DNA from: a virus
Lineage: Duplodnaviria; Heunggongvirae; Uroviricota; Caudoviricetes
DNA length: 29,281 bases
Reading direction: 5' to 3' (one strand)
Virus record (IMG/VR): IMGVR_UViG_2923302340_000002
Location: 1-29,281 of that record
Position 1 is the first letter of the stretch. Each line of letters opens with the position of its first letter. This document shows, piece by piece, positions 2,593 through 23,380 of the stretch. The notes below the pieces were generated by a model that was not told the origin of the DNA, ran no database searches, and saw only the letters and a list, made by a program, of their open reading frames with translations. Both the position numbers and the translations under genes were made by a program.

Positions 2593-4164
2593 TTACTGAG
2601 AGCTCAGATCAACTTTCCAGGGCAACAGATCGCGTACCCGGTTTGCCGGCCAGTCCTGGATATGTTCAATGACGTAGCGCAGCCACTTTTCTGGCTCCAC
2701 ATTGTTCAGACGGCATGTGCCGATCAGCGAGTACAACACCGCCGCATGTTCACCACCGCTGTCGGAACCCGCGAACATCCAGTTTTTCCGGCCTACGGCC
2801 ACTCCCCGTAAGGCGTTCTCTGCGATGTTGTTGTCGATTTCCACCCAGCCATTACTGCAGTACACGTTCAGTGCATCCCACTGTTTCAGCAGGTATGCGA
2901 ACGCTTTTGCCGTATCTGAGTGACGCGACAGTGTTTTCATCTGTTGCTGTATCCAGTCATACAGTGACTGCATCAGTGGCGCGGCTCTGGTTTTTCTTGC
3001 CGCCAGACGCTGTTCTGCTGAACAGCCCCGGACCTCTGCCTCGATGGCATACAGTTCACCGATACGCTGCAGGGCTTCCGTGGTGATGTCGGTGGGCGCT
3101 CTTGCATGCACATCGTGGATTTTTCTCCGGGCATGAGCCATACACGCGGCTTCCGTTATTCTGCCGGATTCGTATAACGCCCGGTAACCACCGTAAGCAT
3201 CGGCCTGAAGCACACCGCTGTAACCGGCCAGGTGATTTTGTGGATGGATACCTTTCCGGTCCGGACTGTACGCGAACCAGACCGCCGGGGGCATCTGTGA
3301 ACCGGCGTTACGGTCATCACGGACGTAGACCCACAGCCGGGCTGTCCGGGGTTTACCGCTGCCCGGCTCCTGGACCGGGACGGGGATATCATCAGCATGG
3401 ACTTTACCGGGCATCAGCACATACTGGCGCAGGACGTCATACAGCGGCTCCAGTAGTTCAGCAACGGCACCTGTCCAGCGCCCCAGCGTGGCGCGGCTCA
3501 GCTCCACACCCTGACGGCGGTATATCTCTGACTGGCGGTATAACGGCAGATGGTCTGCATATTTTCCGGTGACGACATGGGCCAGGAGCCCCGCTCCGGC
3601 ATAACTGCGTGCAATGGGTTTTGAAGGTACTGGTGCCTGCACGATATGGTCGCACCGGCAACAGGCCAGTTTCGGACGTTGTGTTTCGATAACCTTAAAG
3701 GCGCTGCTGATAAGCTCCAGTTGCTCTGACACATCACATCCCAGAGAACTGAGTTCACCACCACAGGCCGGACAGCATTCCTCTTCCGGCCGGATAACCC
3801 GGGTTTCACGGGGAAGTGAGGCCGGTAACGGTTTACGGGCTGAAGACTGGCGCAGGGCGGATGGCAGTACCGGGTCATATTGCTCACCCAGCGTTTCCGC
3901 CATTTCTTCCTGAAGTGCGCTGATTCGCTCCTGTGCTTCCTGTATCTGCCGTTCGGTTTTTGCGCGAAGTTTTTCTGAGCTTTTACCGAACTGCATACGC
4001 TGCAGTTTCGCAACCAGCGCCTTCAGCCGGTTGATTTCGGAAGCATAAGCCGCCACCCGCTGTGAGAGCAGGCGGTTGTATTCAGCCATCTGGCGTATGG
4101 TGTCCTGTTGCGTCTGCAACAGTGCCCGCAGGCGGGCGTTCTCATGAGCAAGTGAGGTGTCCAT
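2593..4164 (-). CDS. tnpC: IS66-family transposase (TnpC / orf3)
   Basis: 523-aa ORF with an N-terminal coiled-coil region ([33 protein letters not shown]), a Cys-rich zinc-binding segment (CPACGG...CCRCDH) and a C-terminal catalytic region, as typical of IS66 TnpC. Confidence 0.9.
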
Positions 4165-8519: not shown

Positions 8520-8992
8520 ACCTCAATCTCTCTGACCGTTCCGCCCGCTTCTTTAAATTTTGTAATCAGGCTGTCAGCCTTATGCTCGAACTGACCATAA
8601 CCAGCCCCCGGCAGTGAAGCCCAGATATTGCTGCAACGGTCGATTGCCTGACGGATATCACCGCGATCAATCATCGGTAAAGCGCCACGCTCTTTAATCT
8701 GCTGCAATGCCACAGCGTCCTGGCTTTTTGGAGAGAAGTCTTTCAGGCCAAGCTGCTTGCGGTAGGCATCCCACCAACGGGAAAGAAGCTGATAGCGCCC
8801 TGCTGCTGTTGATTTGAGTTTTGGGTTTAGCGTGACAAGTTTGCGAGGGTGATCGGAGTAATCAGTGAATAGCTCTCCGCCAACAATGACGTCATAACCA
8901 TGATTTCTGGTTTTCTGTCGTCCGTTATCAGTTCCCTCTGACCACGCCAGCATATCGAGGAACGCCTTACGTTGATTATTGATTTCCACCAT
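8516..8992 (-). CDS. R: Endolysin R (lytic transglycosylase)
   Basis: 158-aa [54 protein letters not shown], same length and N-terminus as lambda R. Confidence 0.95.
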
Positions 8993-9299
8993 CTTCTACT
9001 CCGGCTTTTTTAGCAGCGAAGCGTTTGATAAGCGAACCAATCGAGTCAGTGCCGATGTAGCCGATGAACACGCTCGTTATATAAGCGAGATTGCTACTTA
9101 GTCCTGCGAAGTCGAGAAGGTCACGAATGAACCAGGCGATAATGGCGCACATCGTTGCGTCGATTACTGTTTTTGTAAACGCACCGCCATTATATCTGCC
9201 GCGAAGGTACGCCATTGCAAACGCAAGGATTGCCCCGATGCCTTGTTCCTTTGCCGCGAGAATGGCGGCTAACAGGTCATGTTTTTCTGGCATCTTCAT
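8976..9299 (-). CDS. S: Holin S (S107 antiholin and S105 holin, dual start MKM)
   Basis: 107-aa [67 protein letters not shown], the lambda S pattern with the dual-start motif. Confidence 0.95.
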
Positions 9300-9420
9300 G
9301 TCTTACCCCCAATAAGGGGATTTGCTCTATTTAATTAGGAATAAGGTCGATTACTGATAGAACAAATCCAGGCTACTGTGTTTAGTAATCAGATTTGTTC
9401 GTGACCGATATGCACGGGCA

Positions 9421-9455
9421 AAACGGCAGGAGGTTGTTAGCGCAGCCTCCTGCCG
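9421..9455 (-). other. Stable hairpin in the late leader about 130 nt upstream of S
   Basis: 10-bp perfect stem CGGCAGGAGG / CCTCCTGCCG around a 12-nt loop, followed on the minus strand by UUUUGCCCG. Confidence 0.4.
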
Positions 9456-9764
9456 CCCGCTTTCACGAAGATCATGTGTAGAAGGCCGCAGCGTAACTAT
9501 CACTGATGAATTCAGGATAGCCAGTGGCTACGGCTCAGTTTGGGTTGTGCTGTTGCTTGGCGGCGATGACGCCTGTACGCATTTGGTGATCCGGTTCTGC
9601 TTCCGGTATTCGCTTAATTCAGCACAACGGAAAGAGCACTGTATGTTGCTGGGCCAGATGTCGGCTGCACAGGGAGTCATTGCCGACCCACGCCCTAAAC
9701 ACATTCGTAAATGCGCTTAGGGTTGTCTCCCCTGGTATCCAGTTATTCCCCGGCTGGGGATACT

Positions 9765-9812
9765 CCGCGCGACGCTAATGCGTTTCGTCCCTCATGGACT
9801 CGTCAGGCGCGC
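9765..9812 (-). ncRNA. Type I hammerhead ribozyme motif in the late-transcript leader
   Basis: Minus-strand RNA GCGCGC-CUGACGA-GUCC-AUGAG-GGAC-GAA-ACGC-AUUA-GCGU-C/GCGCGG. This contains both conserved core blocks (CUGANGA and GAA), helix II (GUCC/GGAC, closed with G10.1-C11.1), helix III (ACGC/GCGU with A15.1-U16.1), a GUC cleavage triplet, and helix I formed by the flanking GCGCG/CGCGC. Confidence 0.6.
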
Positions 9813-10087
9813 AATGCTCTTACCTGTTGTGTGCCCATTATTAATCACACCGGGCCAGTGCGCCGAATTTGTTTACAAGGAGTCGGAAGACCTTGCTGAC
9901 TTACAGGCTATTACGCCGCCATCAGAACAACATCATCGTTTGCATTTATCTTTGTGGTCAGTTTCTAAAAAACCGCAAAGTCGCCAACTCTGACGAAAAC
10001 TATCGTTGTGCTGCCACAACGATAAGAGCACTCGGTGCATTTAAGCCAAGCCCCATAAGGGAGAATGCTCTTACCTGTTACACAGAT

Positions 10088-10146
10088 ATAAAAAATCCCG
10101 AAACCGTTATGCAGGCTCTAACTATTACCTGCGAACTGTTTCGGGA
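10088..10146 (-). terminator. tR' (terminator of the short 6S late leader RNA)
   Basis: Minus-strand hairpin with stem arms AAUCCCGAAAC / GUUUCGGGAUU followed by UUUUUUAUAUCUG, about 194 nt downstream of the predicted pR' start, consistent with the lambda 6S RNA length. Confidence 0.6.
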
Positions 10147-10279
10147 TTGCATTTGCAGACCTCTCAGCCTGCGATGGTTGGAGTTCCAGACGATACGTCG
10201 AAGTGACCAACTAGGCGGAATCGGTAGTAAGCGCCGCCTCTTTTTATCTCACTACCACAACGAGCGAATTACCCCATCG

Positions 10280-10316
10280 CTGGGTCAAATTTACCCAACT
10301 TTATTCAAAAAGTCAA
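10280..10316 (-). promoter_or_regulatory. Late promoter pR' (with overlapping qut region)
   Basis: Minus strand TTGACT, a 17-bp spacer, then TAAATT, located about 45-80 bp downstream of the Q stop. Good match to a sigma-70 promoter. Confidence 0.6.
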
Positions 10317-10358: not shown

Positions 10359-10982
10359 CTAACGTGTGACCGCATTCAAGATATTGTCTGCGATTGACTC
10401 TTCCTTGTGGCATTGCACCACCAGAGCGTCATACAGCGGCTTAACAGTGCGTGACCAGGTGGGTTGAGTAAGGTTTGGGATTAGCATCGTTACAGCGCGA
10501 TATGCGGCGCTTGCTGGCATCCTTGAATAGCCGACACCTTTGCATCTTCCGCACTCTTTCTCAACAACTCTCCCCCACTGCTCTGTTTTTGCTATATCAA
10601 CCGCGCGGCCTGTACCGTGGCAATCTCTGCATCTTGCCCCCGGCGTCGCGGCACTACGGCAATAATCCGCATAAGCGAATGTTGCGAGCACTTGCAGTAC
10701 CTTTGCCTTAGTATTTCCTTCAAGCTTTGCCACACCACGGTATTTCCCCGATACCTTGTGTGCAAATTGCATCAGATAGTTGATAGCCTTTTGTTTGTCG
10801 TTCTGGCTGAGTTCATGCTTACCGCAGAATGCAGCCATTCCGAATCCGGCTTGTGATTGCGCCATCCCCATAGCAGCCATCACATCAGTACCGGAAAGAG
10901 AGTCAGAAGCCGTGGCCCGTGGTGAGTCGCTCATCATCGGGCTTTTTGGCGAATGAAATTTAGCTACGCTTTCGAGTCTCAT
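10359..10982 (-). CDS. Q: Late antiterminator Q
   Basis: 207-aa ORF MRLESVAKFHSPKSPMMSDSPRATASDSLSGTDVMAAMGMAQSQAGFGMAAFCGKHELSQNDKQKAINYL, same length and sequence pattern as lambda Q, with a Cys-rich zinc-binding region. Confidence 0.95.
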   Translation of the reverse strand: MRLESVAKFHSPKSPMMSDSPRATASDSLSGTDVMAAMGMAQSQAGFGMAAFCGKHELSQNDKQKAINYLMQFAHKVSGKYRGVAKLEGNTKAKVLQVLATFAYADYCRSAATPGARCRDCHGTGRAVDIAKTEQWGRVVEKECGRCKGVGYSRMPASAAYRAVTMLIPNLTQPTWSRTVKPLYDALVVQCHKEESIADNILNAVTR

Positions 10983-13293: not shown

Positions 13294-13453
13294 AATGACG
13301 CCCTCTGGTGGTTTCTAAATAACCCACCACCGACGATGCCAATCATCTGGTGGTGAACTGTGCAGGGTTGGCATAACCGGGAAACCGACCGGCGCGGATC
13401 TCTCCGCCCCCACACAGCCCACCATAATTCAGATGTGCGCGTGCATACGACAA

Positions 13454-13476
13454 TAAAAAACACGCTCGCGGCGTGT
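13454..13476 (-). terminator. Candidate intrinsic terminator in the nin region
   Basis: Minus-strand hairpin ACACGC-CGCGAG-CGTGT followed by UUUUUUAUUG. Confidence 0.5.
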
Positions 13477-13572
13477 ATCTGTCGCGGTTTCTATCCGGGA
13501 TGCCAATCCCGACGCCAGATTTTGCTGGCGTGTGAGGAATATAGCCCCGGATAAATCATCGCGTCAATCCCC

Positions 13573-23143: not shown

Positions 23144-23215
23144 ACGCGGCGTTACCGCATACCAATAACGCTTCACTCGAGGCGTTTTTCGTTATGTATA
23201 AATAAGGAGCACACC

Positions 23216-23380
23216 ATGCAATATGCCATTGCAGGGTGGCCTGTTGCTGGCTGCCCTTCCGAATCTTTACTTGAACGAATCATCCGTAAATTACGTGACG
23301 GATGGAAACGCCTTATCGACATACTTAATCAGCCAGGAGTCCCAAAAAATGGATCAAACACTTATGGCTATCCAGACTAA
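23216..23380 (+). CDS. cIII: CIII (54 aa; absent from the ORF track because it is under 60 aa)
   Basis: Manual translation from the ATG at 23216 gives MQYAIAGWPVAGCPSESLLERIIRKLRDGWKRLIDILNQPGVPKNGSNTYGYPD, matching lambda CIII apart from one residue. Preceded by an AAGGAG Shine-Dalgarno. Confidence 0.85.
   Translation: MQYAIAGWPVAGCPSESLLERIIRKLRDGWKRLIDILNQPGVPKNGSNTYGYPD

Follow-up and report, generated by a model that had tools for sequence, protein, structure and literature searches.

Hammerhead ribozymes have been described in intergenic regions of prophages and phages (Perreault et al. 2011, PMC3088659). Examples from Agrobacterium cleave in vitro and in E. coli, and processing into shorter RNAs has been proposed for the published hammerheads (PMC3088659). 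The hammerhead considered here lies on the minus strand of a 29,281-nt phage sequence, which is called the window below. Like the published examples, it has a canonical core and three helices and is found inside a long polycistronic phage transcript between genes or gene blocks. However, the published hammerheads are free-standing and often occur in pairs or triples flanking genes (PMC3088659), whereas here a single hammerhead is joined via helix I to a double pseudoknot, at one fixed connector and in two circular permutations, and it is absent from some members of the family. We found no enterobacterial or lambda-like hammerheads mentioned in that study.

Theta ribozymes, which are minimal HDV-like ribozymes, adjoin phage tRNAs, and a role in tRNA-linked processing is suggested for them (PMC10879173). 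They resemble the present family in being small self-cleaving RNAs (by prediction in our case) within phage tRNA regions. The window hammerhead is predicted to cut 5' of a non-coding RNA domain and not 3' of a tRNA. Theta ribozymes belong to another class, with a nested P1/P2/P3 topology that the window domain does not share when set against the textbook HDV structure.

Circularly permuted RNA genes include two-piece tmRNA and permuted tRNA and SRP RNA genes (PMC10085705). As in these, one fold is encoded in two gene orders in the present family, with the connector open in one and closed in the other. In contrast to these, both orders are found in phages, and the connector that is open in the window-type order carries a ribozyme rather than being left to host processing.

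RiboJ-type insulators are engineered hammerheads with a simple downstream hairpin; they remove the leader and leave a structured 5'-OH end. Both properties are predicted for the window RNA as well, which differs from RiboJ in carrying a conserved 100-nt double pseudoknot. We know of no natural phage counterpart of RiboJ. The composite RNA was not found described in the literature searched, the coverage of which was incomplete, so an earlier description is possible.

The original prediction was that the late-gene leader of the window contains a complete type I hammerhead. This observation is confirmed, and its interpretation is supported in part, the hammerhead being a module of a larger family of double-pseudoknot RNAs.

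The hammerhead motif

All window coordinates given below refer to features on the minus strand. From 9812 to 9765, this strand reads GCGCGC CUGACGA GUCC-AUGAG-GGAC GAA ACGC-AUUA-GCGU C GCGCGG, and the elements are exactly those that had been described. Helix I consists of 5 bp between its 5' strand at 9811-9807 and 9770-9766, and the adjoining positions 9812/9765 form a G.G mismatch. The CUGANGA box (CUGACGA) occupies 9806-9800 and is followed by helix II (9799-9787, 4 bp closed by G10.1-C11.1), the GAA box (9786-9784) and helix III (9783-9772, 4 bp starting with the A15.1-U16.1 pair). C17 of the GUC triplet is at 9771, and the cut is predicted between 9771 and 9770. All conserved core nucleotides are present (C3 U4 G5 A6 N7 G8 A9 ... 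G12 A13 A14), with three helices around them and both the A15.1-U16.1 and the 10.1-11.1 pairs in place. The triplet is a cleavable N-U-H triplet, position 17 not being G. The topology is that of type I, with an open helix I and with loops at the ends of helices II and III; this applies equally to the second gene order of the family described below.

The assignment of a type I hammerhead to 9765..9812 rests on the sequence, an Rfam Hammerhead_1 match of 24.7 bits, a descriptor scan with shuffled controls, covariation, and core statistics in 56 relatives. Our hammerhead descriptor finds a single match on both strands of the window, at 9812..9765. After dinucleotide-preserving shuffling, matches are obtained in 1 of 2000 sequences when loose stems are allowed and in none of 2000 with the observed stem lengths. 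In a permissive scan of 801 nt (9400-10200), Hammerhead_1 (RF00163) aligns with 9811..9765 over the full model length (E=0.0016). The gathering score of RF00163 is 34, so the window falls below it, and an Rfam scan of the window at the gathering threshold reports no hammerhead. None of the curated cut-offs of RF00163, RF00008 and RF02275-7 is reached by the window or by its relatives, which score 23-31 bits. A score below threshold had been named beforehand as speaking against the motif, and formally this is what was obtained. We do not take it as a refutation, because the comparative data presented below are stronger and outweigh it.

The satellite-DNA and viroid-like hammerheads represented by RF00163 share the topology of the window motif. 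The lower-scoring window motif differs from them in its helix I sequence and in having no recognizable contact between a helix I bulge and loop II. A loop-loop tertiary contact of the kind seen in fast natural type I hammerheads was not identified in the window hammerhead. Among members with the window-type gene order, loop II is variable (AUGAG, ACACG, UGCAA, UGAAAU); RGUAACG recurs in 19 members, and no partner was identified. Helix I is short, with only 5 bp in the window; in relatives, 4-5 bp are most common within a range of 2-8. In the fold of the full element, helix I leads directly into a multi-helix junction. The hammerhead is present in both the minimum free energy (MFE) and the centroid fold of the whole element (z = -3.67), and the stability of the isolated hammerhead 54-mer is not unusual (z = -0.74). 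Helix I had been thought extendable by three more pairs. These pairs form in the isolated 54-mer only; in the full element, the same bases pair in a long closing stem. Judged from the sequence comparisons, the hammerhead at 9812..9765 is a genuine conserved motif, and it is predicted to cleave itself.

An RNA cassette in the late leader of a lambda-like prophage

The hammerhead has the sense orientation of the late transcript and lies between tR' and S, as originally placed, and the gene calls, pR' and the identity with lambda agree on this. Q is encoded at 10982..10359 and is followed by pR' (10316..10288) and by the tR' terminator of the lambda 6S leader (about 10148..10088), which is upstream of the insert and 96-97% identical to lambda (44349-45383). 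S (9299..8976) comes next, then R and Rz on the same strand. The 96-97% identity to lambda is found on both sides of the insert. The predicted cut is 471 nt before the S ATG, in agreement with the earlier estimate of about 470 nt. From the domain downstream of it to the S start, there are 345 nt of native lambda leader.

At the same spot, lambda has a hairpin of the form CACAACAGGUAAGAGCAUUG-(38 nt)-CAGUGCUCUUUCCGUUGUG, and its 38-nt loop is represented by 422 nt in the window. The cassette thus sits in the apical loop of a native lambda hairpin downstream of tR' and is therefore transcribed only within the Q-antiterminated late transcript. The inserted material consists of a first stem unit, a tmRNA-like module of ~180 nt, similar to the mRNA-like part of tmRNA, and a second stem unit. 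Sequence and lambda comparison define the first stem unit (10015..10079) as AACAGGUAAGAGCAUU, a 31-nt loop CUCCCUUAUGGGGCUUGGCUUAAAUGCACCG, and AGUGCUCUUAUCGUUGUG. In the second stem unit, the hammerhead and about 125 nt of structured RNA (9812..9642) take the place of the loop. The first 16 bases of the first stem unit, AACAGGTAAGAGCATT, are found at 10079..10064 and again at 9828..9813, and they therefore form a direct repeat flanking extra material. The stem unit likewise follows a tmRNA-like module in Klebsiella phage MK54. In three lambda-like prophages (L017, L021, L040), lambda tR' is followed directly by the cassette stem unit without the tmRNA-like module. The cassette is an insertion relative to lambda; the suggestion of a small ribozyme-bearing insertion is borne out by the 38-nt loop of lambda and by the other lambda-like prophages that carry the cassette at exactly this place. 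These arrangements show that the untranslated stretch between tR' and S serves lambdoid phages as a landing pad for RNA cassettes.

The tmRNA-like module (9832..10010) lies between the two stem units on the same transcript and is not part of the hammerhead RNA. It contains a tag-like frame of 10 codons (ANDDVVLMAA and two stops, 9943..9908), behind which lie two H-type pseudoknots, and it is matched by more than 300 phage records. Its Rfam matches are weak and far below cut-off (RF04321, 26.3 bits; RF01850, 17.2 bits), and ARAGORN finds no tmRNA at this position. The only trace of a tRNA-like part is a GGGGCU / CUCC remnant in the loop of the stem unit. A degenerate tRNA downstream in lambda was also considered and rejected: ARAGORN finds nothing there, and manual pairing fails.

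The double-pseudoknot domain

The whole RNA of ~210 nt is composed, in order, of the closing stem, the hammerhead, hairpin P1, a connector hairpin, hairpin Bhp and the other strand of the closing stem. The 5' strand of the closing stem (CACAAC-A-GG-U-AAGAGCAUU, 9813..9831) doubles as the second copy of the direct repeat; in the MFE fold, it is paired with 9641..9623 and stacked on helix I. The 3' strand (CAGUGCUCUUUCCGUUGUG, 9623..9641) is native lambda sequence by the lambda comparison and is paired in the same fold. The closing stem is common to lambda, and compensatory changes are found in L004, L032 and other relatives; the long inverted repeat that had been proposed to bound the RNA is real and covaries.

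Within the closing stem and downstream of the hammerhead lie the two halves of a domain of roughly 100 nt. In half A, hairpin P1 (9735..9763, GUAUCC/GGAUAC) has a 17-nt loop with GCCGGG and a conserved GAAUAAC. P1 is invariant in close relatives, and in the wider family it covaries, with compensatory changes in 4 of 6 pairs. GGGAG at 9727..9731 forms the 5' strand of pseudoknot PKa and pairs with CUCCC (9676-9672) in the loop of Bhp; PKa is 100% paired and shows compensatory changes in 4 of 5 pairs. The connector hairpin HP (9693..9722, CCCUAAGCGCAUU-UACG-AAUGUGUUUAGGG) is 99% paired, and 7 of its pairs have compensatory changes. In the other circular permutation, HP is replaced by an open terminal stem, as read from the sequences of L038, L047 and L056. 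Half B (9645..9692) consists of CGUGGG, hairpin Bhp and a tail, AUCUGGCCCAGCAAC. Bhp (9660..9687, GUCGGC 9687-9682 / GCCGAC 9665-9660), which holds the 3' strand of PKa in its loop, is 100% paired with 2 covarying pairs. The second pseudoknot, PKb, joins the P1 loop (GCCGGG, 9754-9749, as its 5' strand) to CCCAGC at 9653-9648 inside the tail. It is 97.8% paired and shows four pair types at one position. In the window, PKb contains one C.A mismatch, which is a C-G pair in the closest relatives.

Each hairpin loop of P1 and Bhp thus pairs with the 3' flank of the other hairpin. Since this pairing occurs twice, the fold is a symmetric double pseudoknot. Helix I of the hammerhead joins the tail of one half of the domain to the start of the other. 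Over 15 sequences, the structure including both pseudoknots is 93.5% paired, and 29 pairs have changed on both sides. The nested part of the element is reproduced by the MFE fold at -88.7 kcal/mol (z = -3.67). The unpaired nucleotides GAAUAAC, CGUGGG, UGCAG and AUCUGGCCC are strongly conserved.

The domain of the window and of 15 relatives, the hammerhead-less ones included, has no match in Rfam 15 (E<=1-10). Several identities and pairings were considered for it. A pairing between CGUGGG and GGCCC (helix 'Px') shows no covariation and has been superseded by the covarying PKb between the P1 loop and the tail. Identification with drum RNA was rejected: the drum paper shows no link to a hammerhead, and Rfam gives no drum match. 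HDV-like/theta, twister, pistol and hatchet ribozymes likewise have no Rfam matches, and the topology is unlike that of HDV-like ribozymes. The supported pairs of the domain follow the strand order Bhp-PKa-Bhp'-PKb-P1-PKb'-P1'-PKa', which is not isomorphic to the HDV-like/theta order P1-P2-P3-P3'-P1'-P4-P4'-P2'; no match to the HDV families of Rfam was found at E<=1-10.

Conservation of the hammerhead among relatives

Relatives were gathered with exact patterns outside the hammerhead, namely GGGGAATAACTGGATACC(AG) in half A and CGTGGG..GCAG..CAKCTNGCCC in half B. The conservation of the hammerhead is therefore not an artefact of the search. C3, G5, A6, G8, A9, G12, A14 and A15.1 are kept in all 56 distinct hammerhead-bearing members, and U4 in 55 of them. 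U16.1 is also kept in 56/56, and the A15.1-U16.1 pair is retained in 31/31 members of a smaller set as well as in 56/56. A13 is found in 55/56 by a fuzzy parse, the sole exception (L019) being a parsing artefact; a stricter parse required GAA in all 56. Position N7 is variable (33 U, 18 C and 5 A among the 56), and at position H17 there are 30 C, 22 A, 4 U and no G.

The helices vary in a compensated manner. Pairing amounts to 92-100% in helices I, II and III, all of which have compensatory changes, and the 10.2-11.2 pair shows five pair types. Among 17 diverse sequences, the core is invariant except for N7, and compensatory changes occur in helices I-III. When the hammerhead helices and hairpin P1 are taken together in a set of 31 sequences, they are 96.3% paired, with 82 both-side-changed cells against 19 expected. 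In this set, the observed covariation score was not attained by any of 500 shuffles, and pairing was 19-40% in slid controls. Copies in distant phages that are only 79% identical overall nevertheless retain the core. Unusual 10.1/11.1 pairs occur in some members (A.A in 7, U.U in 3), the core is damaged in others (L057, L081, L142), and L007 has point damage in helix II and helix I. As read from these sequences, the odd pairs and damaged cores show drift in some members. The overall pattern, with variation where the chemistry permits it and no change at positions required for catalysis, is characteristic of an active hammerhead and not of a scaffold.

Distribution and gene orders

A BLAST search with 9835..9620 finds the cassette at 95% identity in the T7-like Enterobacter phage EhYP, where it is located just after the terminator hairpin that follows the capsid gene (the T7 T-phi position) and 33 nt before the gene of tail tubular protein A. 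In the same search, copies with 79% identity are found in three Pectobacterium/Dickeya phages, adjoining tRNA-Met. Exact patterns chosen outside the ribozyme (a 20-mer with a related gapped pattern, and an 18-mer) matched 18 loci in viral and 27 in metagenomic sequences, and ~20 of the latter hold the element. In large phages, several cassette loci are flanked by tRNA-Thr and tRNA-Gly as part of a tRNA array. Among complete E. coli genomes, only 15 of 5426 carry the cassette, and it is therefore dispensable for lambdoid growth. The window itself is chromosomal sequence of E. coli CFSAN018748. One of the 15 carriers has the cassette in an unrelated prophage, between packaging genes and on the opposite strand.

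The half-B pattern extended the collection to more than 120 viral loci, about half of which are true members. The census catalogued 66 distinct members, and the family thus has at least 66. In a half-B scan of bacterial genomes, 2 true members were among the 120 matches listed, the rest being mostly chance matches in GC-rich genomes; the family is therefore essentially viral. When a member with the order B, connector, A was compared with cultured phages by BLAST, only 6 records matched. This distribution over T7-like, Pectobacterium and many uncultured phages marks the cassette as mobile among unrelated phages. Together with its rarity in E. coli, it argues against the earlier view of the hammerhead as a feature of lambda late regulation.

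Two gene orders are found among the 66 members. In 22 of them, the window order of hammerhead, A, hairpin and B is closed by the stem unit. The other 44 have the order B, connector, A, and their ends are closed by a terminal stem equivalent to the connector hairpin of the window. The two orders are a circular permutation of one RNA. In both, the hammerhead is found at the same connector, between the tail ending in GGCCCGGCA and GCGCGGAG, and the predicted cut is always immediately 5' of (G/C/U)CGCGGAG. In B-then-A members, this predicted cut is in the middle of the RNA and not at its end.

The hammerhead is missing from 8 of the 66 census members, all with the B-then-A order. Seven of them have a linker of 7-20 nt at this place; in L089, the linker measures 42 nt and does not form a hammerhead. 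A ninth hammerhead-less member, L165, came from the later bacterial-genome scan. Six of the hammerhead-less members (L069, L076, L079, L101, L123, L165) adjoin tRNAs on one or both sides, and members directly between tRNAs are often without a hammerhead. B-then-A members with a hammerhead are mostly found 5-100 nt before the first genes of modules, such as those for a Sak4-like protein, the small terminase subunit, portal, an SbcC-like exonuclease and HNH. Other members directly follow terminators (lambda tR', the EhYP post-capsid terminator, L008, L011, L012). Three settings thus recur: after terminators, in leaders before the first genes of modules, and between tRNAs. One member, L096, is associated with a Y-RNA-like gene. 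No co-occurring protein gene was found near the members by PHROGs matches. The diversity of the downstream PHROGs matches makes a cis-regulator of one specific gene unlikely.

Proposed function and alternatives

We consider it probable that the hammerhead is a built-in module of a mobile non-coding phage RNA, which would cut the transcript 5' of the double-pseudoknot domain. The comparisons establish the motif and its conservation, the fold, the two permutations and the insertion; cleavage and the role of the domain are inferred. According to this proposal, the closing stem and the hammerhead fold during Q-antiterminated transcription, and the RNA would cut itself between C9771 and G9770. The upstream leader, with the 6S region, the tmRNA-like module and the ribozyme core, would be left with a 2',3'-cyclic phosphate end. 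The downstream RNA would have 5'-OH-GCGCGGAG at its start, where the double-pseudoknot domain begins, and would run on into the S-R-Rz message. The purpose of the cut may be to give the domain a precise, unextended 5' end that is uncoupled from the upstream sequence. Ribozyme-less members in tRNA arrays would be given their ends by the tRNAs on either side, via RNase P and 3' processing, and such punctuation of the ends by tRNAs fits the loss of the ribozyme in these arrays. What all hammerhead-bearing members have in common is a defined 5' end after the predicted cut. The domain itself could be a trans-acting small RNA, a protective 5' structure for the downstream RNA, or something more elaborate. 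The hammerhead alone cannot release an RNA of about 150 nt, as first suggested, because a single hammerhead makes one cut; a further cut would be required, which RNase III might make in the closing stem. As about 8 of 66 members are without a hammerhead, the domain does not strictly need the cut. The cut in the middle of the RNA in the commoner B-then-A order implies that defining an end is not the whole story there. Other points against the proposal are the short helix I with no loop-loop contact identified, the Rfam scores below cut-off, the odd pairs and damaged cores of some members, the PKb mismatch of the window and the rarity of the cassette in E. coli.

Protection of a downstream message is a possible, if somewhat doubtful, alternative. 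The element would then act in cis like RiboJ: the hammerhead would remove the leader, and the double pseudoknot with its 5'-OH would shield the late mRNA, or the mRNA of the first module genes, from decay that depends on the 5' end (RNase E, RppH), making expression independent of the upstream context. The usual position of hammerhead-bearing members shortly (5-100 nt) before the first gene of a module is in line with this, as are the members right after terminators (tR', the EhYP post-capsid site, L008, L011, L012) and the identical starting nucleotides of the downstream product in every member. However, members in tRNA arrays have no downstream mRNA in need of protection, the window domain is separated from the S start by 345 nt of native lambda leader, and the conservation of unpaired GAAUAAC, CGUGGG, UGCAG and AUCUGGCCC exceeds what a protective hairpin needs. 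It is rather unlikely that function centres on the double pseudoknot, which would then sense, bind a protein or ligand, or act as a catalyst itself, with the hammerhead as its output or nicking device. Examples would be a natural allosteric hammerhead, or a nicked RNA with a cyclic phosphate that feeds into RNA repair or defence (RtcR/RtcB, anticodon nucleases). Such a role would agree with the way in which the strands of helix I are brought together only on folding of the domain, with B-then-A cleavage products that would stay joined by PKa, PKb and the terminal stem, and with the association of the family with phage tRNA arrays and, in L096, with a Y-RNA-like gene. In Salmonella, RNAs that end in 2',3'-cyclic phosphate, nicked tRNAs among them, activate RtcR (PMC10159003, PMC9879122), which also suits this role. 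The Gifsy-1 determinant of RtcR activation (PMC9879122) was considered in this connection and set aside; it maps to protein genes of the immunity region and not to a ribozyme. The argument for such a role is inferential throughout. We found no conserved alternative pairing by which the hammerhead could be turned on or off, the PHROGs matches near members offer no protein partner, and hammerhead-less members cannot form a cyclic-phosphate end in this way.

The motif of the window could also be an inert passenger, that is, a decaying selfish cassette or a hammerhead-shaped scaffold without cleavage or effect on the phage, which we regard as quite improbable. The rarity in E. coli (15/5426 genomes), the PKb mismatch that the closest relatives do not have, the point damage in helices II and I of L007 and the sub-threshold Rfam score can be read in this way. 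On the other hand, the catalytic core and all three helices of the window are intact, distant copies that are only 79% identical overall keep the core, and purifying selection on catalytic positions with a free N7 and never a G at position 17 is not expected of a scaffold. Finally, many windows were scanned, short consensus motifs do arise by chance, and the isolated 54-mer is of ordinary stability (z = -0.74). A chance match to the hammerhead consensus is nevertheless exceedingly improbable, as had been argued from the completeness of the motif; it is effectively refuted by the 0-1 matches per 2000 shuffled windows and by covarying conservation in dozens of independently sampled phage contigs. 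We retain the hammerhead as a built-in module of a mobile RNA as the preferred reading.

Significance

Phage and prophage hammerheads, some of them proven to cleave, were already known (PMC3088659). What differs here is that a hammerhead is fused via helix I to a conserved double pseudoknot, that its insertion site is fixed, that two circular permutations exist and that the members form a series with and without the hammerhead. The attached domain has a reasonable chance of representing a new class of RNA. More tentatively, and with considerable doubt, the ~100-nt double pseudoknot may be an undescribed class of phage non-coding RNA with a function of its own, such as ligand or protein binding or catalysis, to which the hammerhead is a plug-in module. 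If so, it would possibly be the first natural hammerhead coupled to an appended sensor fold. Alternatively, it could be a maker of base-paired, nicked RNA with a cyclic phosphate that manipulates RNA repair or anticodon-nuclease defence of the host.

The comparison has revealed a phage RNA family of at least 66 distinct members for which there is no Rfam family. Its natural series with and without the hammerhead makes the purpose of a phage hammerhead directly testable, and the lambda late operon in E. coli, the best-understood system available, is at hand for this.

A tmRNA-like module upstream of the hammerhead

Directly upstream of the hammerhead, the minus strand of the window carries a tmRNA-like module (10010..9832). 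A tag-like frame of 10 codons within it (9943..9908, minus strand) reads ANDDVVLMAA and ends in two stops; the tmRNA tag of E. coli is ANDENYALAA. The frame is enclosed by a CUGAC/GUCAG stem and is followed on its 3' side by two H-type pseudoknots. Rfam matches to the module are weak (tmRNA_permuted, 26.3 bits; beta_tmRNA, 17.2 bits). ARAGORN reported no tmRNA in the module, and no tRNA-like domain was seen in it.

A 621-nt query containing the module matched 333 phage records of Salmonella, Klebsiella, and Escherichia siphoviruses. Among the matches listed, the module was the portion of the query that matched in non-lambda records. In Klebsiella phage MK54, the module encodes the tag ANEEMYLAVA, has a promoter of its own (TTGACA-17-TAGATT), and lies antisense to tail genes.

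A stem scaffold with a variable loop

The closing hairpin, or stem unit (CACAACAGGUAAGAGCAUU ... AGUGCUCUUUCCGUUGUG), is conserved and is present twice in the window, at 10079..10015 (unit 1) and 9831..9623 (unit 2), as well as in phage lambda (439-515 of the lambda locus). It acts as a scaffold whose loop content varies from phage to phage. The loop is 38 nt long in lambda, and that of unit 2 is occupied by the hammerhead cassette. Unit 1 and MK54 share a 31-nt loop containing CUCC-CUUAU-GGGGCU. Since tmRNAs usually begin with GGGGCU, this loop might represent an acceptor-stem junction in permuted form.

The segment comprising unit 1 and the tmRNA-like module is flanked by a direct repeat, AACAGGTAAGAGCATT, at 10079..10064 and 9828..9813. 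The repeat suggests that the segment entered by recombination inside the stem unit's 5' strand, in a prophage where the hammerhead cassette was already present, as in L017, a lambda-like prophage whose cassette directly follows tR'.

Variation and neighbors of the cassette

The window copy has an A at minus-strand position 9650 (in CCCAGC), creating a C.A mismatch in PKb, the pseudoknot between the P1 hairpin loop and the tail. In every close relative the corresponding base is G (CCCGGC), and the pair is restored. Hammerhead cores also vary among relatives. The first pair of helix II, G10.1-C11.1, is replaced by A.A in L068, L073, L099, L127, L139, L149, and L151 and by U.U in L013, L092, and L136, and these replacements mark one subgroup of the family's hammerheads. 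The box has 8 nt (CUGAACGA) in L081 and reads CCGAUGA in L057, and the L142 hammerhead is degenerate. The loop II motif RGUAACG is common to 19 members and may be a marker of a tertiary contact.

The same cassette, with 94% identity, is found in a different E. coli prophage, on the chromosome of strain 2017.17.01CC (L275, 2501-2705). It lies in a 1-kb gap amid packaging genes (portal, terminase), on the strand opposite to them, with a Gp49-family gene downstream.

Other structured RNAs neighbor some relatives. In a metagenomic contig (L048, 608-701), the hammerhead cassette is followed by tRNA-Ser and then by an RprA-like sRNA (63.9 bits against a gathering score of 70). L069, a viral contig, carries about 27 tRNAs as well as a complete RNase P RNA of the bacterial type (2968-3382, minus strand; 266 bits), and its tRNA array holds a hammerhead-less double-pseudoknot member between tRNA-Gly and tRNA-Lys. 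Another hammerhead-less member lies directly downstream of a Y-RNA-like (YrlA) match (L096, 1982-2122; 45.3 bits against a gathering score of 69).

Other RNA elements of the prophage

Rfam matches above the cut-offs identified the C4 antisense RNA, its a1/b1 target, isrK, and the lambda cIII thermoregulator in the window (13346..13544, minus strand; 23203..23261, plus strand). Lambda-like late and cIII regions thus occur in this prophage together with an antisense immunity element of the P1/P7 type.
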